In this document: piece after piece, positions 26,762 to 59,274 of the stretch
How the letters are laid out: each line of letters begins with the position of its first letter
Numbering within the stretch: position 1 is the stretch's first letter
Source of the DNA: Candidatus Iainarchaeum sp.
Lineage (GTDB): Archaea; Iainarchaeota; Iainarchaeia; Iainarchaeales; 0-14-0-20-30-16
Assembly (NCBI GenBank): GCA_028710695.1
Contig: JAQTTP010000001.1
Span: 140,559-204,558 of the forward strand
Length of the DNA stretch: 64,000 nucleotides
Reading direction: 5' to 3'
Notes under the pieces: generated by a model
Databases searched by the model: none
Seen by the model: the letters and a program-made list of their open reading frames with translations, nothing else
What the model was told of the DNA's origin: nothing
Translations under genes and position numbers: made by a program

Positions 26762-27666
26762 AAAAAATAATAATTGACACGGATCCAGGACATGATGACG
26801 CCTTAGCAATAATGCTTGCAGAAAAAAGTCGGATGTTTGATATTCTTGCAATTACTACTGTTGCAGGAAATACAACAATTGAAAAAACAACAAGAAATGC
26901 AAAATATGTTTTAGATCTTTTGGATTCAAAAATCCCTCTATACTCTGGATCCGAAAAGCCAATAAAAAGAGAATTAATAAAAGCAGTAGTGCATGGGGAA
27001 AGTGGACTTGCGGGAATAGATCCAGAAGGGGAAGTAGAACTAACAAATAATGCAGTGGATATGATTTTAAAATTAGTAAAAGAAAATCCTGAAGAAATAA
27101 CTTTAGTAACTTTGGGCCCTTTGACAAATATTGCAAGGGCAATTCAGAGAGATCCAGATGTTATGAAAAAAGTAGTAGAAATTGTGGCTATGGGCGGAGC
27201 AATAAAAGTTCCTGGAAACAAAAACAGGGTTGCAGAATTTAATTTTTTTGTAGATCCCGAAGCAGCAGATATTGTGTTTAGATTTCCTGTGAAAAAAACA
27301 ATTGTGCCTTTAGATGCTTGTAATAGGATTAAATTGTCTTTAGATGATTTCAAGAAAATAAAAAACCAAAAAATACGGGGGCCAGTTTTGAAAATGATGG
27401 GCCCGTACATAGAAAATATAACTGCGGATGCAGGCGTGAGAGGGGCATTAATGTATGATCCTCTGACTGTATATTATTTGATTAACCCTGACTCCGCAAA
27501 AACTAAAATCTACGATTTAGTAATTGAGACTAAGGGTGAGTTTACAAGTGGGATGTGTGTTCTAGAATTGAGAAAAAGGGTAAAGAAAGAAAAAAACATT
27601 CTAGTTGTAGAAAAAATTAATAGAGAAAGTTTTAAGAAAGATTTTATTGAGATTCTTGGACGATAG
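26758..27666 (+). CDS. inosine-uridine-preferring nucleoside hydrolase family protein
   Basis: IIIDTDPGHDDALAI is the N-terminal DxDxxxDD Ca-binding signature; 4-nt overlap with the HAD gene. Confidence 0.8.
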   Translation: MKKIIIDTDPGHDDALAIMLAEKSRMFDILAITTVAGNTTIEKTTRNAKYVLDLLDSKIPLYSGSEKPIKRELIKAVVHGESGLAGIDPEGEVELTNNAVDMILKLVKENPEEITLVTLGPLTNIARAIQRDPDVMKKVVEIVAMGGAIKVPGNKNRVAEFNFFVDPEAADIVFRFPVKKTIVPLDACNRIKLSLDDFKKIKNQKIRGPVLKMMGPYIENITADAGVRGALMYDPLTVYYLINPDSAKTKIYDLVIETKGEFTSGMCVLELRKRVKKEKNILVVEKINRESFKKDFIEILGR

Positions 27667-29774: not shown

Positions 29775-30899
29775 ATGGAAGAAGATGAGGGATCGTTAAA
29801 AGTTAAAAAGCCTCCCCTCGGTTTGGCAAAAAAAACCGATTGGAGAACTATTCTACGCGATAGCGTCAGTACTCCTACGGCCCTTGCTAATTCTTTGAAT
29901 TTATCTAAAGATGAAATTTCTGAAGTCTGTGATAATTACCCTGCAATGATTAATCCTTACTACCTATCTTTGGTAAAGAAAAAAGGAGACCCGATCTACA
30001 AGCAATGTGTTCCAGATGTGAAGGAATTACAAGATTATGTTGGCGAAGAAGACCCTCTCTGTGAAGAGCCAGATCACCAGCAAAGAAAAGGGGTTCCTTC
30101 TTTAGTAACACATAGATATCCGGATAGATTATTATTTAGAGTTTCAAACCAATGTGCAATGTTCTGTAGGTTTTGTACTAGAAAGAGAAAGGTTGGGCAC
30201 CCGAAAAAGAATCCAACCCCAAAAGAGATTTCTGAAGCAATAATTTATATAAAAAACCACTCTGAAATAAGGGATGTAATTTTGTCTGGTGGAGACCCAC
30301 TAATGTTAGGTGATAAACAGCTTGAAACAATAATAAGGAACGTTTATAACATTCTGAAAAAAAGAAAAAACAGCATAATAAGAATTGGAACTAGAATGCC
30401 CTGTGTTTTGCCACAGAGAGTAACAAAGGGGCTTTGTAGAATGCTGAAGAAATACCACCCTCTGTTCATAAACACCCACTTTAACCATCCTTCTGAAATA
30501 ACTCCCGAAAGCAGAAAAGCCTGCGGGATGCTAGTAGATTCTGGGATTCCTATGGGAAATCAAACTGTTTTGCTGAAGGGGGTAAATGACGACCCTGCAG
30601 TAATGAAAGAATTGGTTCAAGGGCTGATAAACATGAGGGTAAGGCCATATTATCTTTATCAAGCAGATTTGGTAAGGGGAACAAATCACTTTAGAACTAC
30701 AGTCCAAAAAGGATTAGAGATATACAAGGCGTTAAGGGGCCATACATCTGGGTTGTGTGTTCCGAATTATGTTATTGATGCTCCGGGTGGTGGGGGAAAG
30801 ATCCCTCTGTTGCCAGAATATGTAGTTTCTATTAGTAAGGACAAAGTGGTTTTAAAGAATTATGAAAACAAGAAGTTCGAATATTTACAAATAGAATGA
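29775..30899 (+). CDS. lysine 2,3-aminomutase family radical-SAM enzyme, short (EpmB-like) form
   Basis: CAMFCRFCTRKR (CxxxCxxC), LSGGDPL, VPNYVIDAPGGGGKIPLLPEYV, collinear with KamA. Ends before the KamA C-terminal CxCxxC zinc site. Confidence 0.8.
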   Translation: MEEDEGSLKVKKPPLGLAKKTDWRTILRDSVSTPTALANSLNLSKDEISEVCDNYPAMINPYYLSLVKKKGDPIYKQCVPDVKELQDYVGEEDPLCEEPDHQQRKGVPSLVTHRYPDRLLFRVSNQCAMFCRFCTRKRKVGHPKKNPTPKEISEAIIYIKNHSEIRDVILSGGDPLMLGDKQLETIIRNVYNILKKRKNSIIRIGTRMPCVLPQRVTKGLCRMLKKYHPLFINTHFNHPSEITPESRKACGMLVDSGIPMGNQTVLLKGVNDDPAVMKELVQGLINMRVRPYYLYQADLVRGTNHFRTTVQKGLEIYKALRGHTSGLCVPNYVIDAPGGGGKIPLLPEYVVSISKDKVVLKNYENKKFEYLQIE

Positions 30900-37867: not shown

Positions 37868-39175
37868 ATGGCTGGAAAGATTGAATGGTATCATGAATTT
37901 GTGAATAAAAAATATAACCCCAAACCAAATGATGTTAAAGTACTTTTTAAATACAAACCTGCAGAAGGTATGACTAAAGAAGAAGTAATTGGAAGGGTTG
38001 CTTCTGAGAGCTCGTCAGGAACCTGGACAACACTTGCCAATAGACCAAAGCTTTTGAAGAAGGTAATGGCTTATGGTTATGATTATGATAAAGACTATGT
38101 GAAAATAGCTTATCCAAGAATTTTATTTGAAGATGGCTCTGTTCCTTGTATGATGTCTGGAATAGCAGGAAATATTTTTGGGATGAAAGCAGTAGAAGGA
38201 TTGAGACTGCAAGATGCAGAGCTTCCAATGGATTATGTTAAAGGTTTTAAAGGCCCCAAATTCGGACAAACTGCAATACAAAAAATCTTTAAGAGAAAGC
38301 ACGGCCCAATAACTTCTGTTGTACCTAAACCGAAAGTGGGCTATACTTCTAAAGAGCATGCTTATTTTGTTGCAAAGCAGGTTTGGAGTGGTGGAATTGA
38401 TTGTGTTAAAGATGACGAGAATTTAACAAATCAAAAGTTTAACAAATTTGCAGATAGGGTGAAATATCTTGCAAAGGTTAGGGACCAAGTAATGAAAGAT
38501 ACAGGGGATATCAAAGATGCTTTCATTAACTGTACTTCTCCAACTCTAAAAGAAATGGAAAAAAGAGTAAAAATGGTTCATGATTATGGATTTAATTATT
38601 TTATGTTGGATTTAGTAGTGGGCGGTTTTACTGCTGTTGGAACTGCAGTGGAATTGAGCTATGACTATAAAATGGCAATACATGGACACAGAGCTATGCA
38701 CGCGGCCTTTACAAAAAATCCAGATCACGGAATTTCAATGCTTTTCTTAGCAAAGCTTTACAGGCTTATGGGTGTGGATAATATTCACACAGGTACTGTT
38801 GTTGGAAAGCTTGACGGCAATGAAAAAGAGATAATGGCAATGAAAGATATGATTATGGAGCCAAAGGTTGATGAAATAAAAAACATAAGGCTGGCTCAGA
38901 AATGGGGCAAGATAAAACCATCATTACCAATATCTTCCGGGGGTTTACATCCTGGATTGATTCCTGCGGTTTTTGATGTTTATGGGACAATGAACATAGG
39001 TCTACAATTAGGTGGTGGAACACAAGGCCATCCAGATGGAATTGAGGCAGGGTCTAGAGCAATGATGCAAGCAATAGAGGCTCACAGACAAGGAATAGAA
39101 TTGAAAGATTATGCTAAGAACCACAAAGAATTAGCAAGAGCATTAGAGAAATGGGGTGTCATGAAGCCTATTTAG
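37868..39175 (+). CDS. rbcL: ribulose-1,5-bisphosphate carboxylase large subunit, archaeal form III
   Basis: GTWTTL, CVKDDENL, HGHRAMHAAF, GGGTQGHPDG active-site blocks; 435 aa; no small-subunit gene. Confidence 0.9.
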   Translation: MAGKIEWYHEFVNKKYNPKPNDVKVLFKYKPAEGMTKEEVIGRVASESSSGTWTTLANRPKLLKKVMAYGYDYDKDYVKIAYPRILFEDGSVPCMMSGIAGNIFGMKAVEGLRLQDAELPMDYVKGFKGPKFGQTAIQKIFKRKHGPITSVVPKPKVGYTSKEHAYFVAKQVWSGGIDCVKDDENLTNQKFNKFADRVKYLAKVRDQVMKDTGDIKDAFINCTSPTLKEMEKRVKMVHDYGFNYFMLDLVVGGFTAVGTAVELSYDYKMAIHGHRAMHAAFTKNPDHGISMLFLAKLYRLMGVDNIHTGTVVGKLDGNEKEIMAMKDMIMEPKVDEIKNIRLAQKWGKIKPSLPISSGGLHPGLIPAVFDVYGTMNIGLQLGGGTQGHPDGIEAGSRAMMQAIEAHRQGIELKDYAKNHKELARALEKWGVMKPI

Positions 39176-40273: not shown

Positions 40274-41059
40274 CTACTTTTTAGACTTGCTGTTCCAAAG
40301 GGCATAGAAATAGTCTCTGTGTGTTTGCGCCATTTCTTTGCTGTGTATCATAAAAGCAATAATATTTTCTTTTGATACTAACTTTAGAACTACTTTGTCC
40401 CCATATATCCAAACAGTTTGAGGATTGGTAAAAGTTTTTGGAAGATATTTTACAGAAACAAATTTTTCGGTTATTAATTTTTTGTAATATTTTTTCCCAG
40501 TCTCTGTTGGTGTCACTAGAACTTTTCTATGGATTTTTTTGTTAATTCTCTTTTTATTAAATATATCTAAATATATTGGATAAAGATCTGGCGCATTTCC
40601 TGATGACCCAATAGTAAGCCATTCTTTTCCAGTGTTTATTATATCGTCAAAGATTGCTTTTATTCCTTCTTTACCTTCATATGTTTCTGAAAATATGTTT
40701 GTTTTCTTTACTTTGTATTTTTCTTCTAAAGCAGAAATTTCAGTATCAATATTGTTATTATACTCCTCTAAAATGTGTTTAATTTTTTGTGGATTTGTTG
40801 CTATAAAATATTTTTTGTTTCCTTTAGAAAAATGAGACACTAAGCCTTTTTCTATTAACCTGTTTAAGGCATCATATGTCGCCCTTCTATGTAGATTTGT
40901 TTTTTTTGATATGTTTGTTGCAATGTCATTTTCTACAGCAATTAAGTAATAATAACATTTTATTTCATTAGTAGTTAATCCTATTTGCTTAAGGCCTGAA
41001 AAATTATCCATATTGGTATTTATGTCCGAAAAGATTATATTTGTGGTGCTATTAAGCAC
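40274..41059 (-). CDS. TrmB-family transcriptional regulator
   Basis: N-terminal wHTH (LTTNEIKCYYYLIAVENDIATNISKKTNLHRRATYDALNRLIEKGLV) plus a C-terminal ligand domain. Divergent from a binding-protein gene. Confidence 0.65.
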   Translation of the reverse strand: MLNSTTNIIFSDINTNMDNFSGLKQIGLTTNEIKCYYYLIAVENDIATNISKKTNLHRRATYDALNRLIEKGLVSHFSKGNKKYFIATNPQKIKHILEEYNNNIDTEISALEEKYKVKKTNIFSETYEGKEGIKAIFDDIINTGKEWLTIGSSGNAPDLYPIYLDIFNKKRINKKIHRKVLVTPTETGKKYYKKLITEKFVSVKYLPKTFTNPQTVWIYGDKVVLKLVSKENIIAFMIHSKEMAQTHRDYFYALWNSKSKK

Positions 41060-41098
41060 ACCATTAATATAAATAGGGGGTCATGTCAGAAAACTAGT

Positions 41099-42187
41099 AT
41101 GAAGAAATTGATTTGGATAGTTGGGCTATTATTGATTTTGGTGCTTGTTTTTGTAACATATTACTCTGTACAAAAAAATGCAATTACTGTGGGCGTAATA
41201 ATCCCCCTTTCTGGCTCTGTTGCTGATTTGGGTTTACAGTCAAAAAACGGATTTGATCTTGCAATAAATGAGGGCATAGAATTTGAATTTATTTTTGAGG
41301 ACTCTGTAGGAGACAAAACTGCAGCAATTAACGCTTATAATAAATTAGTATCTGCAGATAATGCAAAGATAATAATTTGTCAGTTGGGCGGGGTATGTGA
41401 TGCTTTGGCAGACATTGCTAAAGATAATGATGTTATTCTGTTAGGTCTGACGTCAAATGACGATTTTGCTGTAAAAGGAAAAAATATTTTTAATGTGAGA
41501 GCAAGTGGTTATGGTATTGGAAAAAGGCTTGCAGAATATTTAATAAAAGAAAATTATAATTCTGTTGCTGTTTTATATAATGAGGAACCAACACATGCCG
41601 CAATTTTTAAAGGATTTAAAAATTATTTTGAAGAAAAGGGCGGTAAAGTAGTTTACTCTGGTTTACATAAAAGTGATGAAAAAGAGTTTAAAACTGAATT
41701 GCTTAAGGCAAACAATGAAAAACCCGAAGGGTTTGTGTTATTTTCAAGATATGGAAACCTGATTAATATTATAAAACAAAAAGAAGAATTAGGAATAAAC
41801 TTGCCAATATTTTCTAATACTGGTGTTGAATCTAAAGAGTTTATTGATTCTCTTGGCCCACTTGCAAATGGAATAATCTTTTCAAGTGCTTCCTTTGACT
41901 ATGATTTAGATTCAGATAAAGTAAAATATTTTATTAGCTTACATGAAAAAATGTTTGGAACAGATATCATTCCATTTTATACTGCTAATGCCTATGAAGT
42001 TGTAGACCTATTAAATTACCTAAAAAGTAAAGGCTGTAACACAACAAAAGAAATAATTTCTTGTTTAGAAAATTTTGGGGGCTATGAAAGTGTATTGGGA
42101 AAAATCTCATTTGATTCTGATGGTGGCGTAATTAGAAACTACCTGATTTATCAAATACAAGATGGCGCATTTGTTAAATTAGAATAG
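41099..42187 (+). CDS. LivJ/LivK-type (type I periplasmic-binding-fold) solute-binding protein with N-terminal membrane anchor
   Basis: Signal anchor, then ITVGVIIPLSGSVADLGLQSKNGFDLAINE, the Peripla_BP_6 N-terminal signature. Confidence 0.75.
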   Translation: MKKLIWIVGLLLILVLVFVTYYSVQKNAITVGVIIPLSGSVADLGLQSKNGFDLAINEGIEFEFIFEDSVGDKTAAINAYNKLVSADNAKIIICQLGGVCDALADIAKDNDVILLGLTSNDDFAVKGKNIFNVRASGYGIGKRLAEYLIKENYNSVAVLYNEEPTHAAIFKGFKNYFEEKGGKVVYSGLHKSDEKEFKTELLKANNEKPEGFVLFSRYGNLINIIKQKEELGINLPIFSNTGVESKEFIDSLGPLANGIIFSSASFDYDLDSDKVKYFISLHEKMFGTDIIPFYTANAYEVVDLLNYLKSKGCNTTKEIISCLENFGGYESVLGKISFDSDGGVIRNYLIYQIQDGAFVKLE

Positions 42188-42541
42188 TTATTCTCTCCAT
42201 TCTGTGTCTTCTGAGAAATTGGCTTTTGTAACAAACAAAAGTAAACCTTGTTTTCCTGCTTTTACTTCATGCCACTCATTTGGCTTTACAATGAATAGAA
42301 CTCCTTGCTTTAGTTTTATAACTTGCTTTCCAGATTTAACAGAACCAGTTCCTTTTAGAACATATTCTGCTTCTTCTTGGCCTTTGTGATAATGTGGTCT
42401 TACAGTTGTGTTTGGCTTTATTTTTATATATTGTGTTTTGCAGAATTTTCCTTGCGCATTTTCTGTTGTCATGAATACTTTTCTAAAGTATCCATAATTT
42501 GTTTTTTGCCATTTCATCTTGCTTGGATTTATCTCTTGCAT
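42188..42541 (-). CDS. cupin-domain protein
   Basis: Cupin motifs PHYHKGQEEAEYVLKGTG and G..F.V.P.EWHEV. Confidence 0.65.
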   Translation of the reverse strand: MQEINPSKMKWQKTNYGYFRKVFMTTENAQGKFCKTQYIKIKPNTTVRPHYHKGQEEAEYVLKGTGSVKSGKQVIKLKQGVLFIVKPNEWHEVKAGKQGLLLFVTKANFSEDTEWRE

Positions 42542-42550
42542 ACTATCACT

Positions 42551-43510
42551 TTAGAAAGGTGCAAAGTTTAGTTTAAGTTCTTTTTTAATATCCAAAACAG
42601 AATAATTCTTTATGTATTGCGGGAAATAATTCTTGAATGATTTGATTATAAAATCTGTTTCATCATCACTTGCAGTTTCAATCTCTAATTCCACATTATG
42701 GCTTCCAATACAATTTACATAATACAAAATTGGTGGGTGCCCTTGTGCAAATATTTCCATGTCACGCAGAATCTTTTCGTTAAAGCTTTGTAATGTAAAT
42801 AGAATCATTTGGTATGTTCTACCTATTTTCTTTGGATCTATTGTAATCTTTGGCATTATTACTCCTAAGCTTTTTAGTTTTTTCATTCTGTTTCTTATTG
42901 TATCCGGTTTTATTTTTGTTTTTTTGCTTAATTCAATATAACTTGCACGTGCATTTAAGGCGAGGGCTTTAATGATCCTTTCATCTTTATTATCTATATT
43001 TACTATTTCTTGATCGCCTAAATAGATAAACTCTTTTTTTTCTATATTTTCTACTAAATAGGATCTAGTAAATAAAGGCGCTTTTGTTAAAATTACCAAG
43101 TCCTCGGAATAAATATATACTCCAAATTTATTTTTTAGTCCATTATAGAAATTTTTGTAATCTTTTAATTGTTTTGCTAAAAATGAGATAATATAATCAT
43201 AATTACCTCTTGTGGATACTGCCCAAAAAACGCCTTGTGTTTTTTTAATAAACTCCTCAAATTCTGCTTCTTTTTCAGAGTTGATGTTTTGTAACCGCAA
43301 AAATAGTTTGTAGTGTGTGTTTCCAAGTTTTGCTAAATTGACCATTAGCACAAATTTATCAATTATGTTATTTTTTTGTAGTCTTTCAATTCTATATGCT
43401 ACTGCCTGTTCAGATAGTTTGACTTTTTTAGCAATTTGCTTATTTGTTTGTCTACAATCTGCGTCAAGCTCATATAGAATTCTGTTGTCATACTTATCTA
43501 AAATCTGCAT
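42551..43510 (-). CDS. tandem Lrp/AsnC-family transcriptional regulator (two HTH-RAM units)
   Basis: Two repeats of the HTH_AsnC pattern (DNRILYELDADCRQTNKQIAKKVKLSEQAVAYRIERL.. and DERIIKALALNARASYIELSKKTKIKPDTIRNRMKKL..), each followed by a RAM-like domain. Confidence 0.7.
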   Translation of the reverse strand: MQILDKYDNRILYELDADCRQTNKQIAKKVKLSEQAVAYRIERLQKNNIIDKFVLMVNLAKLGNTHYKLFLRLQNINSEKEAEFEEFIKKTQGVFWAVSTRGNYDYIISFLAKQLKDYKNFYNGLKNKFGVYIYSEDLVILTKAPLFTRSYLVENIEKKEFIYLGDQEIVNIDNKDERIIKALALNARASYIELSKKTKIKPDTIRNRMKKLKSLGVIMPKITIDPKKIGRTYQMILFTLQSFNEKILRDMEIFAQGHPPILYYVNCIGSHNVELEIETASDDETDFIIKSFKNYFPQYIKNYSVLDIKKELKLNFAPF

Positions 43511-43636
43511 ATATTTGTATAATAACTAAAATATATATAAATATTTCTGTTTTATTCCAAATTTTATTAAAAGGCAATATATTGTCAGAAAAACCCAAGT
43601 TAAATATACTGGATAATACTAATTGGGGGTTTTCTA

Positions 43637-44749
43637 ATGAATAAAAATTATTTGTTTTTTGGAGTAATTGTAATAGTAATTCTTGCTCTGATAATTGGGT
43701 TTTCCATTGGTGGCAATAATGATACCTTAAAAGTGGGATTAGTTGCACCAATGAGTGGAGATGTTTCTATCTGGGGCACTAATGTTTTAGTTGGTGCACA
43801 AATTGCTATTGATGAGTTTAACGCCAAGGGCGGACTAAATGGGCAAAAGATAGAATTAATTGTTGAAGATGGGCAATGCTCTGCAGAAGCGGGGGCTAAA
43901 GCATATAGTGCTTTACTTAATGGTAATGATTTAGTTGCTATGCTTGGACCTGTTTGTTCTGCAGAGGCAAGTGCGGGATTGCCACAAGGGGTGGTAGCAA
44001 ATATGCCAACTGTAATTGCAACAGCATCTGCACCTGAGTTAACGGCTTTGGGAGACAATATATTTAGAGTGTATCCATCTGATACCTTGCAAGGTGGATT
44101 TGCTGCAGAATACGTATATAATGTTTTGGGAAAGAAAAAAGTTGCAATTATTTATGCAAGCAATGCTTGGGGTCAAGGTGTTGCAAATAATTTTAAAACG
44201 GCATATCAAAAATTGGGTGGTGAAATAGTTTATTTTGATAAAGTATCACAAGATGAAGTTGAGGTAAAAGATGTAATTAACAAATCAAAATCAACAAATC
44301 CAGATATGTTGTTTTTGCCAATATATCCTAAAACAATAATGGCAATATTAAAAACAAAAGATGAATTGAATTGGAATATTCCTGTATTGGGTGGGGATGC
44401 TACTCTTTCTGAAGAGGTTATTAAAAGTAATTTAGGAAATGAAATTTTGTTCACACAACCACAATTCAATATCTCTGAAGAACTAAAAGAAAAAGTAAAA
44501 AAGAAGAATGGGGAAAACTTTATGATAAATGTTGGTTCTTCATTTGGTTATGATGCTGCAATAGTTCTTTTGACTGCATTAGAAAATGCAGATTCCTTAA
44601 GTCACGAGGACGTAATAAAAGAATTGGCAAAGACAAAAATCAGCGGAATTTCAAATTCTGTAATTGAATTTGATGCAGAAGGAGATTTAAAAACAGGGAC
44701 TTTTGAAGTTCAAATAATAAAAAACAATCAAGCAATTCCGGCGGAATAA
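43637..44749 (+). CDS. LivJ/LivK-type solute-binding protein with N-terminal membrane anchor (paralog 2)
   Basis: LKVGLVAPMSGDVSIWGTNVLVGAQIAIDEFNAKGGLNGQKIELIVED..; C-terminus nearly collinear with paralog 3. Confidence 0.75.
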   Translation: MNKNYLFFGVIVIVILALIIGFSIGGNNDTLKVGLVAPMSGDVSIWGTNVLVGAQIAIDEFNAKGGLNGQKIELIVEDGQCSAEAGAKAYSALLNGNDLVAMLGPVCSAEASAGLPQGVVANMPTVIATASAPELTALGDNIFRVYPSDTLQGGFAAEYVYNVLGKKKVAIIYASNAWGQGVANNFKTAYQKLGGEIVYFDKVSQDEVEVKDVINKSKSTNPDMLFLPIYPKTIMAILKTKDELNWNIPVLGGDATLSEEVIKSNLGNEILFTQPQFNISEELKEKVKKKNGENFMINVGSSFGYDAAIVLLTALENADSLSHEDVIKELAKTKISGISNSVIEFDAEGDLKTGTFEVQIIKNNQAIPAE

Positions 44750-44770
44750 TTTCCGCCCCTCTTTTTTTAT

Positions 44771-45733
44771 TTAGAACGGAACAAAGTTTAGTTTTAATTC
44801 TTCTTTTACTGTAAGTACTGTATAGTTCTTTATATACTTGAAAAATTGTTTTCTGAAATCATTAATTATTTGCTCAGTTTCTTCATTGTTTTTTGTTTCC
44901 ATTTCTAATTCTATGTTGTGATTTCCAATACAATTAATATAGTAAATAATCTCTGGATATCTTGTTGCAAAAGACTGCATTTCTTTTTGTGTTCTTACAT
45001 CAAAACTCTGCAATGTTATTGTGGCCAAGGTATATGTTCTTCCAATCTTTTTTTCATCAATAGTTATTTTTGCTCCAGTTATTGCCCCGAGTTTTTTTAA
45101 TTTGTCATATCTGTTTTTGACTGTGTCGGGGGTTATCCCAGTGATTTTACCTAGTTCAATATAATTTAATCTTGCGCTGTTTCCTAACGCGTGTAATATT
45201 TTTTTGTCTTTTTCATCCAGTATTACCGTTTCTCTTATTCCCCCATATAATATTTCTCTTTTTTCTGGGCTGTTTTTTAGATATGATCTGTTAAGTAAAG
45301 TTCCGTGTGTAAGCAGAGAAAGTTCTTCAGAATAAACATATGGCCCCCAAATTTCTTTTATTTTGTCATACATCTCTTTATAATCTAATAAATCTTTTGC
45401 AAGATATGAAATCACGTAATCATACAAACCTAAAGTTTTTCCAGCCCAAAAAATATTGTCTTCTTTTTTAATATAATTTATGAACTCTTGCTCTTTTTCT
45501 GGCGATATATTTTGTAGTTTTAGATATAATTTATAATGTGTATAACCCATTCTTCGGGGGTTAGTCATAAGTACAAATTTTTTTATTACTCCTTCCTTTA
45601 GCATTTTGTCTATTCTATATGCTACTGTTTGCTCTGAAACCTTTGCTTTTTTTGCAAGTTGTTTATTGGTTTGTCTTGAATTTAGATCTAGTTCATAAAG
45701 TATAGAATAATCTGTAGGGGTTAAATTAATCAT
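44771..45733 (-). CDS. tandem Lrp/AsnC-family transcriptional regulator (paralog of 42551-43510)
   Basis: Same double HTH-RAM layout; ends ..EELKLNFVPF versus ..KELKLNFAPF in the paralog; start at ATG 45733. Confidence 0.7.
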   Translation of the reverse strand: MINLTPTDYSILYELDLNSRQTNKQLAKKAKVSEQTVAYRIDKMLKEGVIKKFVLMTNPRRMGYTHYKLYLKLQNISPEKEQEFINYIKKEDNIFWAGKTLGLYDYVISYLAKDLLDYKEMYDKIKEIWGPYVYSEELSLLTHGTLLNRSYLKNSPEKREILYGGIRETVILDEKDKKILHALGNSARLNYIELGKITGITPDTVKNRYDKLKKLGAITGAKITIDEKKIGRTYTLATITLQSFDVRTQKEMQSFATRYPEIIYYINCIGNHNIELEMETKNNEETEQIINDFRKQFFKYIKNYTVLTVKEELKLNFVPF

Positions 45734-45843
45734 AACATAGAATTTGTAGGCAAGATTTATTAAATATTTCGGAAATATTCTAAATTTGTCTGTTTGGTAC
45801 ATAAATATTCCTTATAATCAGAATGTAATTGGGGGTATCTATT

Positions 45844-46944
45844 ATGAATTTTAAAGCAGTTTTGTTTGGAGTAATAGCATTAATTATCTTGGCAGTAATA
45901 ATTGGTTTTTCTGTTGGTGGAGATAAAGATGTGATAAAGATTGGGATCATTGCACCACTGACTGGCGATATTGCAAGCTGGGGCCAAAATGGGCTTGCAG
46001 GAGTTGAATTGGCTGTAAAAGAAATAAATGACGCAGGCGGAATAAATGGATCTTTAGTTGAATTAATTGTTGAAGATGATAAAAGCACAGATGCAGTAAA
46101 TCCAGCAAATAAATTAATTAATATAGATAATGTGGATGCATTAATATTTGCGGGGGGTTCAAATCAAGCTCAACCAATAATACCAATAGTAACTGAAAAA
46201 CAAATTCCTTTGATTTTGACAGTTGCGTCTAATCCTGATCTTACTTTGTCATCTGATTGTGTATTTAGAGTTTATCCTTCTGATACTGCACAGGGGAAAT
46301 TTGCTGCAGAATATTTGTACAACAACCTTAATGTAAAAAACGTAGCAGTGATATATGAACAAAATCAGTGGGCAACAGGAGTAAAAGAGGTCTTTGAAAA
46401 AGGGTACAAAGGAACAATCGAAGAGGTAATTATTTTACAAAAATACCAACAAGATTTTAAGACTGAACTAACAAAATTGGATAGTCTTGACGTAAACTAT
46501 GTTTATGTTTTGGTATATCCTGAAACTGGAATGGCATTCTTAAACCAATACAAAACATTTGGATCTGACAAGAAAATATTTGGCGGAGATATGTTTGATA
46601 GTGGAGAATTAATAACAAGTGGATTTGCGGATGGGGTGTTATATACTGTGCCTAAAGTTACAACACCGGAATCTTTTAAAGAGGAAATAAAAACAATGCC
46701 TGCTTTTTCTACTTTAGAAATATCCTTGGCTGCGCCTTTGGGTTACGATGCAGCAAAGGTTCTGCTAACTGCTTTGGAAAATGTGGCTCCTTTAAGCTCA
46801 GAAAATTTGATAATTGAATTAAAGAAAACAAGTATTGCGGGAATGTCAAATTCTCTTATCGAGTTTGATAATCATGGAGATTTAAAAACCCCTGGGTTCG
46901 AAGTAAAAATGATAAATAACAAGGAAGCAGTTCCAGTTAAATAG
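45844..46944 (+). CDS. LivJ/LivK-type solute-binding protein with N-terminal membrane anchor (paralog 3)
   Basis: IKIGIIAPLTGDIASWGQNGLAGVELAVKEINDAGGINGSLVELIVED. The AATTGGGGG RBS region is shared with paralog 2. Confidence 0.75.
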   Translation: MNFKAVLFGVIALIILAVIIGFSVGGDKDVIKIGIIAPLTGDIASWGQNGLAGVELAVKEINDAGGINGSLVELIVEDDKSTDAVNPANKLINIDNVDALIFAGGSNQAQPIIPIVTEKQIPLILTVASNPDLTLSSDCVFRVYPSDTAQGKFAAEYLYNNLNVKNVAVIYEQNQWATGVKEVFEKGYKGTIEEVIILQKYQQDFKTELTKLDSLDVNYVYVLVYPETGMAFLNQYKTFGSDKKIFGGDMFDSGELITSGFADGVLYTVPKVTTPESFKEEIKTMPAFSTLEISLAAPLGYDAAKVLLTALENVAPLSSENLIIELKKTSIAGMSNSLIEFDNHGDLKTPGFEVKMINNKEAVPVK

Positions 46945-46949
46945 GGGGC

Positions 46950-47591
46950 TTATTTTCTCCCCTTATTCTCTTTTATTGTTTTCATAATACTGCGGATGTA
47001 TTCAGCTCGGTTCTTTGAAATTGTATTAATTTCAGATTGTGGTTGAATCATAATATGCACTGGAATCTTATTGAAAATAATTTTTACATAAATTTGGTTT
47101 GTGATTTTGCTGTCTGTGTCTCTGTGTTTTTGGACGGACCCGAAAAAGTTTTCTGGATTTTTCATTCCTTTTATTTTTTGTAATTTATATTTTTTTAAAA
47201 TTAGATCTAAAACTTTGTGGCAGTCTTCCTCCGTTTTTGGTAGAATTTTTATTCCAATGAAATCTGTTAAAGCGTTTTTTAATTCCTTGCCAACAATTTT
47301 ACAGTAGTAATATTTTCGATTTATGCTGTGAATAGTTTTTATTCTTGAAATATAGTCACAAGAAATTCCAGTAAATTTTATTGCAAATTTTAGTTCTTTT
47401 AGAAGCTTTTTTTTGGTGGCAAATAACTCTTTATGGTTTCCTTTTATAGACCTAATTAGTTTGTATTGCTTTGGAATGGTTAGGCGTAAAATTAGGCTTT
47501 TTATGTGGCCAAGAAACATCTCTTTTTTGTGTTTTAGATAAATCCATAAAAAGGAATACATGCTGGGCTCCTTTTTTTTATTTCTATTCAC
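46950..47591 (-). CDS. divergent RelA/SpoT-like (RSH synthetase-fold) nucleotidyltransferase
   Basis: Order of blocks ISRIKT..S..K / DFIGIKIL / DCHKVLDLI / ENFFGSVQKH / VHIMIQPQSE / AEYIRSI mirrors RxKxxxSxxxK / DxxGxRxx / DxY / GYxSxH / ExQIRT of (p)ppGpp-synthetase domains, but with substitutions at catalytic positions. Confidence 0.4.
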   Translation of the reverse strand: MNRNKKKEPSMYSFLWIYLKHKKEMFLGHIKSLILRLTIPKQYKLIRSIKGNHKELFATKKKLLKELKFAIKFTGISCDYISRIKTIHSINRKYYYCKIVGKELKNALTDFIGIKILPKTEEDCHKVLDLILKKYKLQKIKGMKNPENFFGSVQKHRDTDSKITNQIYVKIIFNKIPVHIMIQPQSEINTISKNRAEYIRSIMKTIKENKGRK

Positions 47592-48702
47592 CTAAACTTA
47601 AGTCCCAGTATGTGTATTCATAACCCGATTCTGGATCTTGCGGTGGATTCCAAACTTGGGTTTTTTGGCCAACGGCCCTGTGCCCTTTAGCATTACCACC
47701 AACATGTACTTGTAAATTCTCATATTCTTTGCTTTTTCCTAGTTGTTGATCAGGGCTTTCATCACAATACTCATTTCTTGTAGGTGATGGCGTTTTATCT
47801 ACATTTAACTCTGCAGATATAAATGCTGCCCCGCCATATTGGTCATCATCTGTAAAACCAAATAAACTTTGGTTCTCTGATTCCATGGTGGCAGTTCCAT
47901 TACCTTCTTTGGTTAAAATAACACAGCCGGTATCTACAACCATTTTATAAGTCCACATAAATTTGCCATTCTCGAAATAATAACTTTTTGTACCTACTGT
48001 TTCGCCTAAAACACTATATCTTTTTAATGTTCCACCAACGATGTCTACTTTTGTAAAATAATAAGTATCTTCTGCTTCAGATAAATATTCATATTTAATT
48101 CTACTACAAAGATCTCCTGCACCACTTTGTTTGGTTTCTGCTAATTTTTTTAAATCGTCAAATCCTAATTCGTCACACAAAATTACAATTTCTTTTAATC
48201 TATTTTTGCAAATATATATGTCATTTATTTCTTCTGTTAGTCTATTTTTAATTGTATCTAAAACTATTTTATCTAAATTTGGCAACAATCCAAAACTTTG
48301 TAGTAGTCGTAATGCGTCAATTAACATGCTATTTGTTGAATTGGGGTCGCTGATAATACTTTCAGCCCATTGCTTGATTTTTGCCTTTGTTTGTGCATCA
48401 TATTTATCTGTGTCTGGTAAGCCCCAAATTTTTGCTAAACCTAATGCATCTATCATTTGTTGAGGTGTTGATTTGGGATTATTAAAAGTATCTTCTACAT
48501 TGCCCATAGTATTAGCTTGATTTGCATTCATTTGATCTTTTGATGAATCTCCTGTGCTTGGATAAGTCGCATCATCACCACTTGTTAAGCCAGATTTTGT
48601 TGTACCTAAATTGCTTTCATCAGTTCCTGGAGCAACACAGCCAGACAAAAATATAACTGATACAAAAAAACAGAGAATCAAAGAAATAATTATTTTATTC
48701 AT
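47584..48702 (-). CDS. secreted lipoprotein, Ser/Thr/Asp-rich linker then globular domain
   Basis: Start set at ATG 48702. Signal peptide ends in lipobox LSGC. The 3' end overlaps the RSH-like gene start by 8 nt. Confidence 0.5.
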   Translation of the reverse strand: MNKIIISLILCFFVSVIFLSGCVAPGTDESNLGTTKSGLTSGDDATYPSTGDSSKDQMNANQANTMGNVEDTFNNPKSTPQQMIDALGLAKIWGLPDTDKYDAQTKAKIKQWAESIISDPNSTNSMLIDALRLLQSFGLLPNLDKIVLDTIKNRLTEEINDIYICKNRLKEIVILCDELGFDDLKKLAETKQSGAGDLCSRIKYEYLSEAEDTYYFTKVDIVGGTLKRYSVLGETVGTKSYYFENGKFMWTYKMVVDTGCVILTKEGNGTATMESENQSLFGFTDDDQYGGAAFISAELNVDKTPSPTRNEYCDESPDQQLGKSKEYENLQVHVGGNAKGHRAVGQKTQVWNPPQDPESGYEYTYWDLSLGE

Positions 48703-48755
48703 TATACAAATACTAAATATAACTTTAAATAAGTATCCCAGGCTATTTTTATTAG

Positions 48756-48976
48756 GCAGTAGTGGTCCAGTGGTAAGATAAGAGCTTCCCAAGAACCCTT
48801 TTTAGAAACAAAAAGAAACTTTTGCCCTGGCAAAAGCGTTCTTTAGGTCCAGAAGAAATTTTTGGAAAACAAAAATTGGCTTCTTGAAAAGCGTTCACGG
48901 AAAAAGGAGTGCATAAGGCACCCCAGAATAGGTTCGGAAAGAGCTTTTGACCCGGGTTCAATTCCCGGCTACTGCA
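48756..48976 (+). tRNA. tRNA-Gly (anticodon CCC) interrupted by a ~149-nt intron at the canonical 37/38 position
   Basis: 5' exon GCAGTAG-TG-GTCCAGTGGTAAGAT-A-AGAGC-TTCCCA (48756-48792); 3' exon A-GCTTT-TGAC-CCGGG-TTCAATT-CCCGG-CTACTGC-A (48942-48976). Acceptor halves are perfectly complementary. Intron ends GAACC.../...GGTTC can pair as the central helix of a bulge-helix-bulge. Confidence 0.65.
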
Positions 48977-51056: not shown

Positions 51057-51470
51057 TTATGCTTCTTTTAATTTCCGTAATTCTTTTAGATGGTCTTCTA
51101 AGAATTCGAAATGTGTCTTTACTGGATATTTTTTGCTGTAAGATAATCCTCTTTGAACCATTGCAATCAGAATCGTTCTATAACGTACTTTTAAAGATCT
51201 TGGCATTTCATCTAAAGCATCATTTAAATGTGTTACAAAATTAATTGGGTTAATCATATCAACTGAACTTTCAGATCGTAGGTCTCTAATCTCACGTTCA
51301 AAAGCAACATATCTTTCTCTTTCGTGTAAAAGATTTGCAATTGTTGCCTTTCGTTCTTGGTGAGGTGTTGTTGAATTCTCCCTTGGCTTAAAATGAACTA
51401 CCTCTCCATGTCCTTTTGGCGGTTCTGGTTTTTTAGGTCCAAATCTTCTTGTTACACTCATATTAACCAC
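51057..51470 (-). CDS. hypothetical protein (second gene of a two-gene operon)
   Basis: 137 aa, basic N-terminus; overlaps the upstream gene by 8 nt; no motif recognised. Confidence 0.4.
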   Translation of the reverse strand: MVNMSVTRRFGPKKPEPPKGHGEVVHFKPRENSTTPHQERKATIANLLHERERYVAFEREIRDLRSESSVDMINPINFVTHLNDALDEMPRSLKVRYRTILIAMVQRGLSYSKKYPVKTHFEFLEDHLKELRKLKEA

Positions 51471-51828
51471 GTTTTAATTGTGCAAGCGCTCTTCTAAAAT
51501 ATGTAAAATAAAGTAAATATTTTTTATCTAGTGCTAAAGCCTCTTTTTCTCGCGTGAACAAAAATTCAATTGCTCTTATAATATCAGATCTTCTTTGACG
51601 AACTATTTCTTTTGGTGAATTTCTCATTGCACTATAAAGTGCAGTCATACCATAAATAATTTTTTCATGTGGGCTCATTGCAAACTCAATTGCGGAAGTG
51701 AGTTTTTTTTCTCTGATTTTTCTAACTGCTTCTAAGCCATATTTTTTTTGGTCATATTCAATTCCATAAGTTTTTTTGAACTCTTTTTTTGGTACTTTTC
51801 CAGACATTCTATCTTTTGCTACGACCAT
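51463..51828 (-). CDS. hypothetical protein (first gene of a two-gene operon, divergent from hydA)
   Basis: 121 aa, helical; no motif recognised. Confidence 0.4.
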   Translation of the reverse strand: MVVAKDRMSGKVPKKEFKKTYGIEYDQKKYGLEAVRKIREKKLTSAIEFAMSPHEKIIYGMTALYSAMRNSPKEIVRQRRSDIIRAIEFLFTREKEALALDKKYLLYFTYFRRALAQLKRG

Positions 51829-51878
51829 AATAGTTATTTTGCAGGAATCTTTTTATATTCTTATCACATAATTTTATC

Positions 51879-52970
51879 ATGGAAAAAACTATTGAGCAAC
51901 AAATTTACTTTGATGATCTCGATGGCTTGATAAAAGCAATGACTGCAGAAACGAAAAAAGGAAAAATATTAGTTGCTCAAATTGCACCCGCAGTACGATT
52001 TTCTATTGGAGAATGCTTTGGAGAAAAAGCAGGGATTGATAATACAAAAAAAACAATCTCTTTATTGAAAGAACTTGGATTTGATTATGTTTTTGATACT
52101 CCTCTTGGGGCAGATTTGATTGTTGTTGATGGAGTCAAAAATTTCTTAAAAATGGATTTGAAACATTTTGAGAAGTTTCCAGTTTTTACATCTTGTTGTA
52201 TAGGGTGGAGAAGATTTGCACAAAAAAATTATTTTTATAAAAAACATCTTTCAAAAGAGGTAAGTCCAAATATGGCTTTGGGACTAACAGCAAAAACTTT
52301 TTTTGCAAATAAAATTAAGAAAAAAGCAGAACAAATTGTGGTTGTTGGAATAATGCCTTGTACTTTGAAAAAATATGAAACTTTGTATGAATTCAAAAAA
52401 GGAATAAAATATGTTGATTATGTTGTTACAACAAAAGAGCTCGGGGCTTGGGCAAAGAAAGAAAATATTGATTTTAAAACCTTGAAAGGGCATGAATTTG
52501 ACTATTTACACGAAAGCTCAAAAGAAGGGCTTATGTTTGGGGCTAGCGGAGGAGTAACAGAGGCATTCCTGACGGCTTTGGCAGATAAGCTTGGAGAAAA
52601 AAAGGAAATACTTTTTTTTAGAAATAATAAAAGGATAAAAAGGCAAAAGGTAAAGATTGGAGATCTAGAATTAAATGTGGCTAGTGTTTATGGATTCGGG
52701 GCGCTGGTGAAATTACACAGAGAGATGGATCGTGGAGTAACATACCATTTTGTAGAAGTTATGCAATGTCCTTTGGGTTGTGTGGGCGGGCCTGGGCAGC
52801 CGGAAGCAGGATTTTTTAAAATAAAAAGAAGGGCAAAAGAGTTGAGGAGACATGCAAGCAGAAAGCGTGAACATAGTGCTTTAGAAAACAAAACCGTGGA
52901 TGAGATTAGTGCTTATCTAGAAAAGAAGAAGATCTCTTTGCATTTGCATGAGCATAAAGAGCACAAATAG
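51879..52970 (+). CDS. [FeFe]-hydrogenase catalytic (H-cluster) domain protein, minimal form without F-cluster domain
   Basis: QIAPAVRFSIGECFG; L1 FTSCCIGW; L2 MPCTLKKYE; L3 FVEVMQCPLGCVGGPGQP. All three H-cluster motifs are present, in order. Confidence 0.75.
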   Translation: MEKTIEQQIYFDDLDGLIKAMTAETKKGKILVAQIAPAVRFSIGECFGEKAGIDNTKKTISLLKELGFDYVFDTPLGADLIVVDGVKNFLKMDLKHFEKFPVFTSCCIGWRRFAQKNYFYKKHLSKEVSPNMALGLTAKTFFANKIKKKAEQIVVVGIMPCTLKKYETLYEFKKGIKYVDYVVTTKELGAWAKKENIDFKTLKGHEFDYLHESSKEGLMFGASGGVTEAFLTALADKLGEKKEILFFRNNKRIKRQKVKIGDLELNVASVYGFGALVKLHREMDRGVTYHFVEVMQCPLGCVGGPGQPEAGFFKIKRRAKELRRHASRKREHSALENKTVDEISAYLEKKKISLHLHEHKEHK

Positions 52971-56886: not shown

Positions 56887-57390
56887 TTGTTGATTAGTAG
56901 AAAACCCTTAGCCAAAAGAAAGCCGCCAGTACCACAAGTAAGGCACATTGTTAAAAATGAAACAACAGTGGTGTATGCGGGTAGAAAAACCCCTTATGAA
57001 TTATGGGCTAAACGTAGAAATGCGGTATCAAAGATTCTTGGCTTTAAAGAAGCAGATAGGCAGTGGGATAGAGATTACTTTGGGCTTGCTGTCCCTCACC
57101 ATTTTGGTTCTTATGGGCAATTAGTTCTTAGACCTTGGTTCGTAGAAGGGAAAAGATTTGCATATGTTGAAGGTATAAGAGTAAAAGATTGGTACGAACA
57201 TAGAGGTCTTGCAACAAGGATGTATAAAAAAGCAGAAGAGATTGCAAGAAAACAGGGCTTGCCAGAAATTAGGGTTTGGTTGGTGAATAATATTGAAAGG
57301 CAAGAGAAGATTTTGACTGAACTTGGCTGGAAAGAATTTGCAAAATTAAGTGATAAAAATGGAAAAATGTGGAGTAAAATGTTGATTTAA
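56887..57390 (+). CDS. GNAT-family N-acetyltransferase
   Basis: GIRVKDWYEHRGLATRMYKKAEEIARKQG is GNAT motif A (R/Q-x-x-G-x-G/A); elevated GC. Confidence 0.6.
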   Translation: MLISRKPLAKRKPPVPQVRHIVKNETTVVYAGRKTPYELWAKRRNAVSKILGFKEADRQWDRDYFGLAVPHHFGSYGQLVLRPWFVEGKRFAYVEGIRVKDWYEHRGLATRMYKKAEEIARKQGLPEIRVWLVNNIERQEKILTELGWKEFAKLSDKNGKMWSKMLI

Positions 57391-58103
57391 CTCTTCGCAA
57401 TATTCCAAAGAAGCTCAAAGAAGTTTCTATTTGTTTCTACTGCTTTTTTGCTTTTTACAACAAATGCTAATGGTTGTTCTCCCCACACTATTGTGATAAA
57501 CTTGTCGCCATAAACCATGTTGGTTGAAGGATAATCATATTTTTCTGGAAGAAATTTCATTATGAAATTTTTTGTGGCTTCTTTAATTTTTTGCTTTTTT
57601 ATTTTTTTATTATAAATTATTTTTAGAATTATTTTTTTTAATTCTCTTTTTTGGTGCCATTTAACATAATAAACTGGAAATAGCTCTTTAAATCTGCTTT
57701 GTGCACCGAAAATAAAAATCTCTTTTGAATTTAAAGCATCGTCGAAGATAAATTTTATTCCTTTCTTGCCACGGAATATTGTTGCATTATCATCTTTTTG
57801 TGTATCATAATATGTAGACTTTAGTTCGCCTAGGATATCCATTAACTTATTCTGTTTTTCGTCAAGCATTTCTTCTAATATCTTTGGGTTATTTGGCTTA
57901 AACATTTTTACATTATTTTCTAGAACATAGCTTACTAGTCCTTTCTCTACAAGCCTTTCTAATGCATCGTAAACATTTGAGCGGTTTGCCTCGCACTTGT
58001 TTGTTATTTTACTTGCTTTTGCTTCTCCCAAAGAAAGCAAGGCGAGATAGACTTTTGATTCTGTCTCACTTAGTCCAAATTCTTGTAAAGTATTTTCTTG
58101 CAT
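57387..58103 (-). CDS. TrmB-family transcriptional regulator (paralog of 40274-41059)
   Basis: LSETESKVYLALLSLGEAKASKITNKCEANRSNVYDALERLVEKGLV wHTH; divergent from a fourth binding-protein gene. Confidence 0.65.
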   Translation of the reverse strand: MQENTLQEFGLSETESKVYLALLSLGEAKASKITNKCEANRSNVYDALERLVEKGLVSYVLENNVKMFKPNNPKILEEMLDEKQNKLMDILGELKSTYYDTQKDDNATIFRGKKGIKFIFDDALNSKEIFIFGAQSRFKELFPVYYVKWHQKRELKKIILKIIYNKKIKKQKIKEATKNFIMKFLPEKYDYPSTNMVYGDKFITIVWGEQPLAFVVKSKKAVETNRNFFELLWNIAKS

Positions 58104-58188
58104 ATAATTTGATAGTTACAAAATGTATTTATTGCTGTTGGTATGCCAACGACAAGTTAAGAAATACTTGAAAAGATAAAGTATTTAT

Positions 58189-59274
58189 ATGGGTAAAAAT
58201 ATTTTATTGGTGGTAGGAGTTGGATTTATTTTCGTGGCGGCTATAATCATTTTTGCCTTTATCTTTTCTGAGCCCGGAACTGCAATTAAAATTGGGGCAA
58301 TAATTCCTTTAACTGGTGATGTTTCTTATATGGGCCAGAGTATGAAAAATGGAATTGATTTGGCGTCTAAAGAAACAGGTTTGAAAGTTGTGTATGAAGA
58401 TTCACAAGGAAAAAAGGATGTTGCGGTAAATGCATATAATAAATTGACGCAACTTGATGGTGTGAATTATATTCTTGGGAGCCAAAGTGGAGTGATTTTG
58501 AGTTATTCTTCTCTTGCAAAAGAACAGAAGAAAATAGTTTTTGCAATTGGAACTGCAAGCCCAGGATTAACAAAAAATAATGATTATCTTTTTAGAAATA
58601 ATTTGTATACCGCAGAAGAAGCAGAATTTAATGCAAGGCAGATTTATAACTTGGGCTATAAAAATTTAGTCTTGTTGGCACACAACCAACCAGGTGGGGT
58701 GGATTATTTGAAAATAATTTCTGATAATTATGGTGGAAAAATAGAATTCCAAGAAATATTTTATAGTGCCCTGGACTTCAAAACAATTTTGAGCAAAATA
58801 AAAGATTCAAATGCTGATTCTGTGTTTGTATATTCCTATGCTTCTGAGCTAGCAGAGTTGTTAAAGGAAAGTTATGGTTTGGGATTAAATGTAAGATGGT
58901 TTAGCTTCTTTGCAATGGAAGAAAAAACAATTCATAACTTGCCATTGAATGTAAAAGAGGGTCTAGTTTACTCTTACCCAATAGATGATAAAAATCCAAA
59001 ATATTTAGAATTTCAAGAAAAATACTTTTCTGTGTATGGGGAATACCCTGACTTGTTTGCAGCGCTGGCTTATGATAATATTTTTATGTTAAAGCAAGCA
59101 ATGCAAGGTTGTGAATATGAAAACACAGATTGTGTGAAAGATAATTTGTTAGAGATAAAAGAGTTTGAGGGTGTAAGCGGGCTAACAAGTATAGATTCAG
59201 ATGGAGATTCCCACAAACCAATATATCTAAAAACAATTAAGGATGGAGAATTTGTAATGTTTGAAAATCAGTAA
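58189..59274 (+). CDS. LivJ/LivK-type solute-binding protein with N-terminal membrane anchor (paralog 4)
   Basis: IKIGAIIPLTGDVSYMGQSMKNGIDLASKE after a signal anchor. Confidence 0.75.
   Translation: MGKNILLVVGVGFIFVAAIIIFAFIFSEPGTAIKIGAIIPLTGDVSYMGQSMKNGIDLASKETGLKVVYEDSQGKKDVAVNAYNKLTQLDGVNYILGSQSGVILSYSSLAKEQKKIVFAIGTASPGLTKNNDYLFRNNLYTAEEAEFNARQIYNLGYKNLVLLAHNQPGGVDYLKIISDNYGGKIEFQEIFYSALDFKTILSKIKDSNADSVFVYSYASELAELLKESYGLGLNVRWFSFFAMEEKTIHNLPLNVKEGLVYSYPIDDKNPKYLEFQEKYFSVYGEYPDLFAALAYDNIFMLKQAMQGCEYENTDCVKDNLLEIKEFEGVSGLTSIDSDGDSHKPIYLKTIKDGEFVMFENQ

Follow-up and report, generated by a model that had tools for sequence, protein, structure and literature searches.

A 64,000-nucleotide stretch of DNA from Candidatus Iainarchaeum sp. 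(positions 140,559 to 204,558 of contig JAQTTP010000001.1, called the window in the following) contains a gene, hydA, whose product is an [FeFe] hydrogenase consisting of the catalytic H-domain only. The analyses presented here make it probable that, in an archaeon of the Iainarchaeota, this protein (the query) forms the catalytic subunit of a "minimal" [FeFe] hydrogenase that is monomeric, of ferredoxin type and a member of group A1. Its predicted H-cluster binding site is complete. The proton-transfer residues E279, E282, R286 and S320 of CpI, the group A enzyme of Clostridium pasteurianum whose numbering is used throughout, are not conserved in the query, a feature that was overlooked in an earlier, sequence-only reading of this DNA.

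The hydA open reading frame (ORF; Table 1) codes for a protein of 363 amino acids with a mass of 41.4 kDa and an isoelectric point (pI) of 9.4, which is identical to MDD4983424.1, an entry already annotated at NCBI. A Pfam scan of all 363 residues matched the profile Fe_hyd_lg_C (PF02906) along its entire length (profile positions 1-245 of 245, residues 29-305, E 4.1e-63) and yielded no other domain. The best NCBIfam matches were models of group A [FeFe] hydrogenases, which were matched partially and only in their H-domain part; the score obtained with TIGR02512 (group A; 240 bits, partial match) lies under the cut-off for full-length proteins because the F-domain is absent from the hydA product. 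The top sequence matches in the PDB were the H-domains of Thermotoga maritima HydA, of the HDCR subunit HydA2, of Thermoanaerobacter kivui HydA1 and of CpI, with E values of about 1e-51 to 1e-47. Translation revealed six cysteines in total (positions 46, 106, 107, 161, 297 and 301), five of them related to the H-cluster, so that no accessory iron-sulfur (FeS) domain is possible. The sequence-only reading had described a stand-alone M1-type (H-cluster-only) hydrogenase without any ferredoxin-like accessory domain. The first part of this description is supported by the full-length PF02906 match, the sequence motifs and the predicted fold, and the second by the number of cysteines and by PF02906 being the sole Pfam domain. 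Membership in the "ultraminimal" group E (about 286 residues with condensed loops, the closest characterized homolog being a group C enzyme of T. maritima) was also considered and rejected, as the query is 363 residues long and its best matches belong to group A.

[FeFe] hydrogenases carry three signature motifs, namely L1 (TSCCPxW), L2 (MPCxxKxxE) and L3 (ExMxCxxGCxxGGGQP). All three had been reported for the query, together with a further conserved block, and translation located each of them in the order described (Table 1). Residues were mapped by aligning the query to CpI variants with HMMER and to 105 homologs with MAFFT, and the correspondence between query and CpI around all H-cluster motifs turned out to be free of gaps. 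The alignment with CpI confirmed all four cysteines of the [4Fe-4S]H cluster, including the one bridging to the 2Fe subcluster. Moreover, the five H-cluster cysteines and the equivalents of K358, M353, M497, E361, P231 and F417 are invariant among the 105 members of the family. In the QIAPAVRFSIGE block, residues A36, P37 and A38 correspond to A230, P231 and S232 of CpI, located beside the 2Fe subcluster, with A36 and P37 being invariant across the family alignment. Two departures from the general signatures were noted: L1 contains Ile where CpI has the usual Pro301 (P301I), which is typical of the family, and in L3 the family signature GGPGQP replaces GGGQP, the query having GCVGGPGQP (G507P).

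The assignment is further supported at the level of the predicted fold. An AlphaFold2 (AF2) model of the hydA product, built on an alignment of 34 sequences, reached a predicted local distance difference test score (pLDDT) of 91 and a predicted template modeling score (pTM) of 0.90. All of the 50 top Foldseek matches of this model in the PDB were [FeFe] hydrogenases, among them CbA5H, HydABC HydA, CpI, HDCR and DdH, with query-normalized template modeling (TM) scores of 0.79-0.85 (0.80-0.85 for CbA5H, HydABC HydA and CpI) and about 345-365 aligned columns. The structural match takes in the basic, helical C-terminal tail, of which helices 312-326 and 338-349 are present in the model, and in some homologs PF02256 (Fe_hyd_SSU) was matched at this region. 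Judged by the model, the tail is the counterpart of the small-subunit-like C-terminus found in group A enzymes.

With regard to the host, genes of archaeal type are found throughout the window, which is consistent with a DPANN (Iainarchaeota) origin of hydA. They include a superoperon of proteasome-alpha/SBDS/Rrp4/Rrp41/Rrp42/L37ae as well as genes for S19e, L31e, prefoldin beta, an archaeal CCA-adding enzyme, eIF6, prefoldin alpha and aTrm56. Close to hydA, LonB with an archaeal LID domain and PriL are encoded, and for these two the earlier statement that the flanking genes are archaeal holds. On the downstream side, the gene order hydA-lonB-SPFH-priL-...-trmB-PBP-spoIIM is common to the window and a contig (L002) of a related metagenome-assembled genome (MAG), which argues against a chimeric assembly. 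The two HydA proteins are 72% identical and the neighboring gene products 55-89%; hydA thus evolves like an ordinary constrained gene, with the same divergence as its neighbors. The nucleotide composition of hydA, compared with the flanking DNA as had been proposed, is also typical of the window, both in its tetranucleotide correlation (0.909 versus 0.932 +/- 0.025 for window tiles of the same size) and in its guanine plus cytosine (GC) content (0.345 versus 0.322 +/- 0.023). A TATA-box-like element upstream of the hydA start codon (Table 1) might represent a promoter of its own, giving rise to a leaderless or short-leader transcript. Similar TATA-like TTTATATA elements are located between hydA and lonB, and the presence of such elements before both genes suggests that hydA is monocistronic.

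A word-indexed search yielded about 100 H-domain-only homologs of 340-390 residues with 38-51% identity to the query, the named ones being from Micrarchaeota, Bilamarchaeum, Anstonella and Parvarchaeota. Scanning GTDB species representatives gave 63 loci, nearly all of them in MAGs of Micrarchaeota, Iainarchaeota, Bilamarchaeaceae or Anstonellales and four in Clostridia/Firmicutes. In a neighbor-joining (NJ) tree, calculated from BLOSUM62 distances without bootstrap and with CpI as outgroup, the query and its counterpart in L002 are placed deep in the archaeal clade, as sister to "Diapherotrites" and two sequences of uncultured archaea, and the sequences from UBA95 (L045) and from an Iainarchaeum MAG (L054) belong to earlier-branching subclades of the same archaeal clade. 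The query falls into a derived subfamily characterized by (N/T)SCCIGW and GGPGQP, and inside it into a small clade with G279 and E321. The same tree contains, branching basally to the archaeal minimal clade, short HydA proteins (397-487 residues, with GGPGQP) from Firmicutes/Clostridia MAGs (L048, L050, L061 and L062). Their position is a hint that the archaeal A1 enzymes either came from bacteria or have a sister group there. Two further relatives are worth recording. A protein of 4122 residues in the representative library (P0125) has seven separate regions that match the query (E 4.7e-257), resembling seven tandem H-domains; it may result from a fusion of gene models or genuinely be a polyprotein of several hydrogenases. 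In a metagenome relative with 77% identity (L066:1137-1796), an in-frame stop is found nine codons past the apparent hydA ATG; probably the true start lies downstream or, otherwise, the stop is a sequencing error.

HydA-only hydrogenases of group A1, which average 363 residues in length, have been described from Iainarchaeota, Micrarchaeota and Nanoarchaeota (Greening et al., Cell 2024, PMC11216029). According to that study, AF2 models of archaeal A1 enzymes contain all ligating cysteines and differ in their proton-transfer residues, the enzymes termed Mu and Ia (from Ca. Iainarchaeum andersonii) produced H2 after maturation with [2Fe]adt, and the predicted role of the group is ferredoxin-dependent fermentative H2 evolution (PMC11216029). 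The model in Figure 2A of the same work is from UBA95 (Micrarchaeota), and L045 is probably identical to the tested Mu enzyme. Of 130 archaeal genomes with hydA, only 5 had a full HydEFG set, and an alternative maturation pathway was therefore proposed (PMC11216029). The query agrees with these archaeal A1 enzymes in being HydA-only with 363 residues, in its single H-domain without accessory clusters, in its DPANN host, in the absence of HydEFG nearby and in its predicted ferredoxin-dependent H2 evolution; the NJ tree without bootstrap provisionally puts it in the same clade. The sequence-only reading was right in recognizing a real archaeal minimal enzyme and overstated its novelty: the minimal architecture, the archaeal host, the activity of the class, the missing maturases and H2 metabolism in small genomes had all been published in 2024.

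Comparison with better-studied hydrogenases shows both similarities and differences. HydA1 of Chlamydomonas reinhardtii (M1-type; 3LX4, 6GM5) is likewise H-domain-only, has the same cysteine ligands and L1-L3 motifs (PDB matches with E about 1e-38) and takes its electrons directly from ferredoxin, as is predicted for the query. Unlike the latter, it is about 100 residues longer owing to insertions, with the match to the query being split into two stretches, it keeps the canonical proton path (E141 corresponding to E279 of CpI), and it depends on HydEFG. CpI itself (group A, M3; 4XDC) has the same H-domain fold (Foldseek TM 0.80-0.83, about 33% identity), but carries an additional N-terminal F-domain of approximately 210 residues that holds four accessory FeS clusters. 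A third point of reference is TamHydS, a putative sensory enzyme of group D with an alternative proton-transfer pathway. It sets a precedent for an H-cluster enzyme that does without the relay residues of group A and relies on glutamates placed elsewhere, namely E252 and E289 (PMC10407848). In contrast to the query, whose best matches are all from group A, it belongs to another phylogenetic group and has accessory clusters.

The canonical proton path of group A consists of C299-E279-S319-E282-R286, with S320/H569/E278 forming the entrance (PMC6226526; bioRxiv 10.64898/2026.09.22.753672). Whereas CpI has all of these residues, the path is incomplete in the query, in which only C299 and S319 are kept, plus an acid at position 278 (Table 1). 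Since the segment from the GAD anchor to the SCC anchor contains no indel when compared with the family, the assignment of G85 to position 279 is robust. Gly at this position is confined to the clade of the query (the query itself, P0002/L065, P0003/P0121 and L066), whose sequences come from four different data sources and are 72-79% identical. Elsewhere Glu prevails at this position: 101 of the 102 other family members have it, as do each of the 23 longer relatives checked and 141 of the 147 representatives of diverse 50% clusters. At position 321, where CpI has Ala, all five clade sequences, including the fragment P0004, contain Glu (E127 in the query; motif SKE(V/I)SPN). None of the 102 family members and none of the 147 representatives has an acidic residue there, the position being occupied by I, V, L, C, T, A or S instead. 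Two of the remaining relay positions vary inside the clade, with N, E or K at 282 and S, S or L at 319.

All these observations might imply that this lineage of Iainarchaeota minimal hydrogenases has naturally rewired its proton path, with E279, the buried relay glutamate present in almost all of group A, replaced by Gly and a new Glu arising at position 321; we put this forward tentatively, as an idea that is rather doubtful at present. A relocation of the relay carboxylate is possible, resting on a single evolutionary event and one analogous case, but the clade may also simply comprise slow enzymes. The analogous case is a second minimal HydA lineage from a Micrarchaeota MAG (L046:653-1819, corresponding to P0088), in which position 279 is Ala and Glu replaces Ser at 319. 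This might be another, independent relocation of the relay carboxylate and hints that such relocations recur. Asp84 was considered as a direct substitute for E279 as well. It aligns with E278, the residue of the pathway entrance bound to H569 in CpI, so that a central role is unlikely. Literature searches for position A321 of CpI or for proton transfer in Iainarchaeota enzymes gave nothing beyond the 2024 paper, and the loss of E279 together with the gain of E321 constitutes a modest new detail beyond the published work on archaeal A1 enzymes.

To look for maturases, the 79 non-overlapping ORFs of at least 80 amino acids in the window were searched for the CX3CX2C motif, as expected of the radical-SAM enzymes HydE (TIGR03956) and HydG (TIGR03955), and for the P-loop motif, as expected of the GTPase HydF (TIGR03918). 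By these criteria none of the three maturases is encoded in the window, in agreement with the sequence-only reading. The only ORF containing the radical-SAM motif CX3CX2C (29775-30899, forward strand) encodes a KamA-family aminomutase resembling lysine/glutamate/arginine 2,3-aminomutases (LAM_C match; TIGR00238 276 bits, below every equivalog cut-off) and matched neither HydE nor HydG. The three P-loop ORFs of the window code for a T2SSE ATPase, FtsY and LonB. A ferredoxin-type CX2CX2CX3C motif was not found in any of the six reading frames. Alternative maturation factors were sought among the conserved neighbors of hydA in the 63 related loci, where only one non-housekeeping gene recurs. Its product of about 185 residues with several predicted membrane helices corresponds to the protein called hyd6TM in the literature and had no match in Pfam. 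The gene flanks hydA in 27 of the 63 loci and directly adjoins it in 19 (e.g., L045:11131-11679, L054:9356-9916 and L006:11060-11623; all within L005-L057), and no gene other than hyd6TM qualifies as a candidate for a conserved partner of the hydrogenase among these loci. Other recurrent neighbors, namely EF-1alpha, an HtpX-like protease and a large surface protein, are housekeeping genes that reflect common gene order. Upstream of hydA, two small, overlapping ORFs (51057-51470 and 51463-51828, both on the reverse strand) encode basic, lineage-specific proteins and are divergent from hydA. They were rejected as partners, having neither a Pfam or NCBIfam match nor a counterpart upstream of hydA in L002. 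An MFS gene further upstream is not common to L002 either. As nothing near hydA resembles a maturation candidate, the window gives no help on the maturation question.

For the mechanism, it is proposed that the single H-domain would bind the H-cluster through C107, C161, C297 and C301, the last of these also forming the bridge to the 2Fe subcluster, and that C106 would relay protons to the azadithiolate bridge. As there are no accessory FeS clusters, electrons would be received directly from a soluble donor. This donor is most likely reduced ferredoxin, which may dock on the very basic surface and the C-terminal tail; the pI values of the query and of its tail (9.4 and 10.1, respectively) would suit the docking of an acidic ferredoxin. 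The physiological role would most likely be the disposal of fermentative reductant as H2, as far as the direction of catalysis can be predicted. The 2Fe subcluster might be supplied by a route other than HydEFG or by maturases encoded elsewhere. With the canonical path broken at G85, N88, M92 and K126, protons would have to reach C106 by another route, for which a water chain in the cavity left at Gly85, acting together with Glu127 and Asp84, is our preferred guess. Turnover is probably below that of canonical group A enzymes.

Several observations weigh against a minimal group A1 hydrogenase that evolves H2 from ferredoxin. The window encodes no ferredoxin, PFOR or maturase gene, and hyd6TM, which distinguishes many archaeal A1 loci from the present one, is absent both from the window (hidden Markov model search of the six-frame translation, best E 0.034) and from L002. 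The archaeal A1 enzymes that have been tested possess the canonical path and are only about 36-37% identical to the query, which belongs to the (N/T)SCCIGW/GGPGQP subfamily. The same identity separates the query from the UBA95 (L045) and Iainarchaeum (L054) sequences, both of which keep TSCCP and the E-E-E-R residues of the path (E278-E279-E282-R286). In CpI, less than 1% of activity was left in the variants E279A and E279Q, with no rescuing water seen, and 10-30% in E279D (PMC6226526), so that the query enzyme may be very slow. It is therefore conceivable, if unlikely, that the query is a low-turnover or repurposed H-cluster protein serving slow H2 uptake, H2 sensing or redox buffering and not a high-flux fermentative producer. 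Besides the behavior of the CpI variants and the replacements at 279, 282, 286 and 320, such a function would be compatible with the variability of positions 282 and 319 inside the clade and with the 10- to 3000-fold lower speed of groups that lack either the path of group A or the S320/H569/E278 entrance motif (bioRxiv 10.64898/2026.09.22.753672; PMC10407848). However, the query contains no PAS or other signaling domain, has no partner gene and is encoded by a monocistronic-looking gene in a housekeeping neighborhood. Furthermore, C299 is kept, and Duan et al. tie the very low activity of the sensory T. maritima HydS to their C-to-A variants at this position (PMC6226526). The lineage-specific Glu127 beside S319 would also suggest a path that has been rebuilt and not abandoned.

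Far less probable still is a non-functional apo-protein or relic that is never given its 2Fe subcluster as the organism lacks HydE, HydF and HydG. The lack of maturases in 64 kb and in most hydA-bearing archaeal genomes is what speaks for it. Yet the ligands and second-sphere residues are invariant in more than 100 homologs and in the clade with 72-79% identity, and hydA has diverged to the same extent as the neighboring housekeeping genes, which together indicate purifying selection on the cofactor site. In addition, archaea without maturases do produce H2, and their enzymes are active once matured (PMC11216029). Maturases may also be encoded outside the 64 kb. Two remaining readings, a Nar1/NARF-like scaffold for FeS assembly and a bacterial contamination or chimeric contig, are effectively refuted. 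PF02906 covers Nar1/NARF as well, and the four Clostridia/Firmicutes sequences at the base of the NJ tree might be taken to point to a bacterial source. Loss of ligating cysteines, as would be expected of a Nar1/NARF-type protein, was not observed. On the contrary, C299, K358, M353, M497, P231 and L1-L3 are all present, and this invariance of ligands and second-sphere residues excludes the scaffold reading. An N-terminal cysteine cluster is missing too (the first cysteine, C46, is single), the residues of the pocket for the 2Fe subcluster are all kept, and it is true hydrogenases that score best in NCBIfam and the PDB. A bacterial or chimeric locus is contradicted by the archaeal genes on both sides, the gene order common to a second archaeal MAG and the typical tetranucleotide and GC composition. 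The minimal group A1 hydrogenase thus remains the favored reading.

Table 1. Features of hydA and its surroundings in the window, and query residues with their counterparts in CpI.
Feature	Position in window (nt)	Strand	CpI counterpart	Evidence or remark
TATA-box-like TTTTATAT, ~25 nt upstream of hydA ATG	51851..51858	+		read from sequence
hydA, H-domain-only [FeFe] hydrogenase, archaeal group A1 "minimal" type	51879..52970	+		ATG ORF, PF02906, AF2, Foldseek
QIAPAVRFSIGE block, residues 34-45	51978..52013	+		CpI alignment
D84-G85, central relay Glu to Gly, lineage-specific	52128..52133	+	E278-E279	ungapped alignment from GAD to SCC
L1 motif FTSCCIGW, residues 103-110	52185..52208	+		alignment, translation
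S125-K126-E127	52251..52259	+	S319-S320-A321	S319 kept, S320 lost, lineage-specific Glu at 321
L2 motif MPCTLKKYE, residues 159-167	52353..52379	+		M159, C161, K164 and E167, all invariant in family
L3 motif FVEVMQCPLGCVGGPGQP, residues 291-308	52749..52802	+		M295, C297, C301
Basic C-terminal helical tail, pI 10.1	52806..52967	+		aligns with HydA C-terminal regions
P37			P231	second sphere
D84			E278	acidic residue retained
G85			E279	replaced
N88			E282	replaced
M92 or gap, alignment-dependent			R286	lost
C106			C299	proton relay to azadithiolate (adt) amine; kept
C107			C300	[4Fe-4S]H ligand
S125			S319	kept
K126			S320	lost
M159			M353	second sphere
C161			C355	[4Fe-4S]H ligand
K164			K358	second sphere
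E167			E361	second sphere
F220			F417	second sphere
M295			M497	second sphere
C297			C499	[4Fe-4S]H ligand
C301			C503	ligand bridging to 2Fe subcluster

Apart from hydA and its surroundings, the window contains a number of other genes that deserve mention. A type III RuBisCO (37868-39175, forward strand; TIGR03326 521 bits, above cut-off) and an inosine-uridine nucleoside hydrolase (26758-27666, forward strand) fit the nucleoside-salvage pathway typical of DPANN archaea. Four paralogous solute-binding proteins of the Peripla_BP_6 family (41099-42187, 43637-44749, 45829-46944 and 58189-59274) alternate with double-HTH Lrp/AsnC regulators (42551-43510 and 44771-45802) and TrmB regulators (40274-41059 and 57387-58103). 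Both regions concerned (40274-46944 and 57387-59274) are devoid of adjoining genes for ABC permeases or ATPases, an unusual arrangement reminiscent of a sensor. In another part of the window, an ORF for 142 amino acids (12121-12549, forward strand) matched the domain of Whirly ssDNA-binding transcription factors (PF08536, E 8.5e-13), and a 402-residue ORF product with eight cysteines (47584-48792, reverse strand) had no match in Pfam or NCBIfam.

The window adds one more genome to the known pattern of stripped-down [FeFe] hydrogenases in DPANN archaea that are seemingly made without HydEFG. Within this pattern, the clade of the query keeps all residues binding the H-cluster and yet drops the glutamate that mutagenesis of CpI and HydA1 identified as essential for proton delivery, which makes it a cheap natural test for enzymologists of how rigid the proton path of group A is and perhaps a template for engineering H2 catalysts of very small size. 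If the proposed rewiring is true and the enzyme still fast, the clade would be a natural case in which a group A scaffold, of the smallest format known for this group, moves protons by an alternative route.

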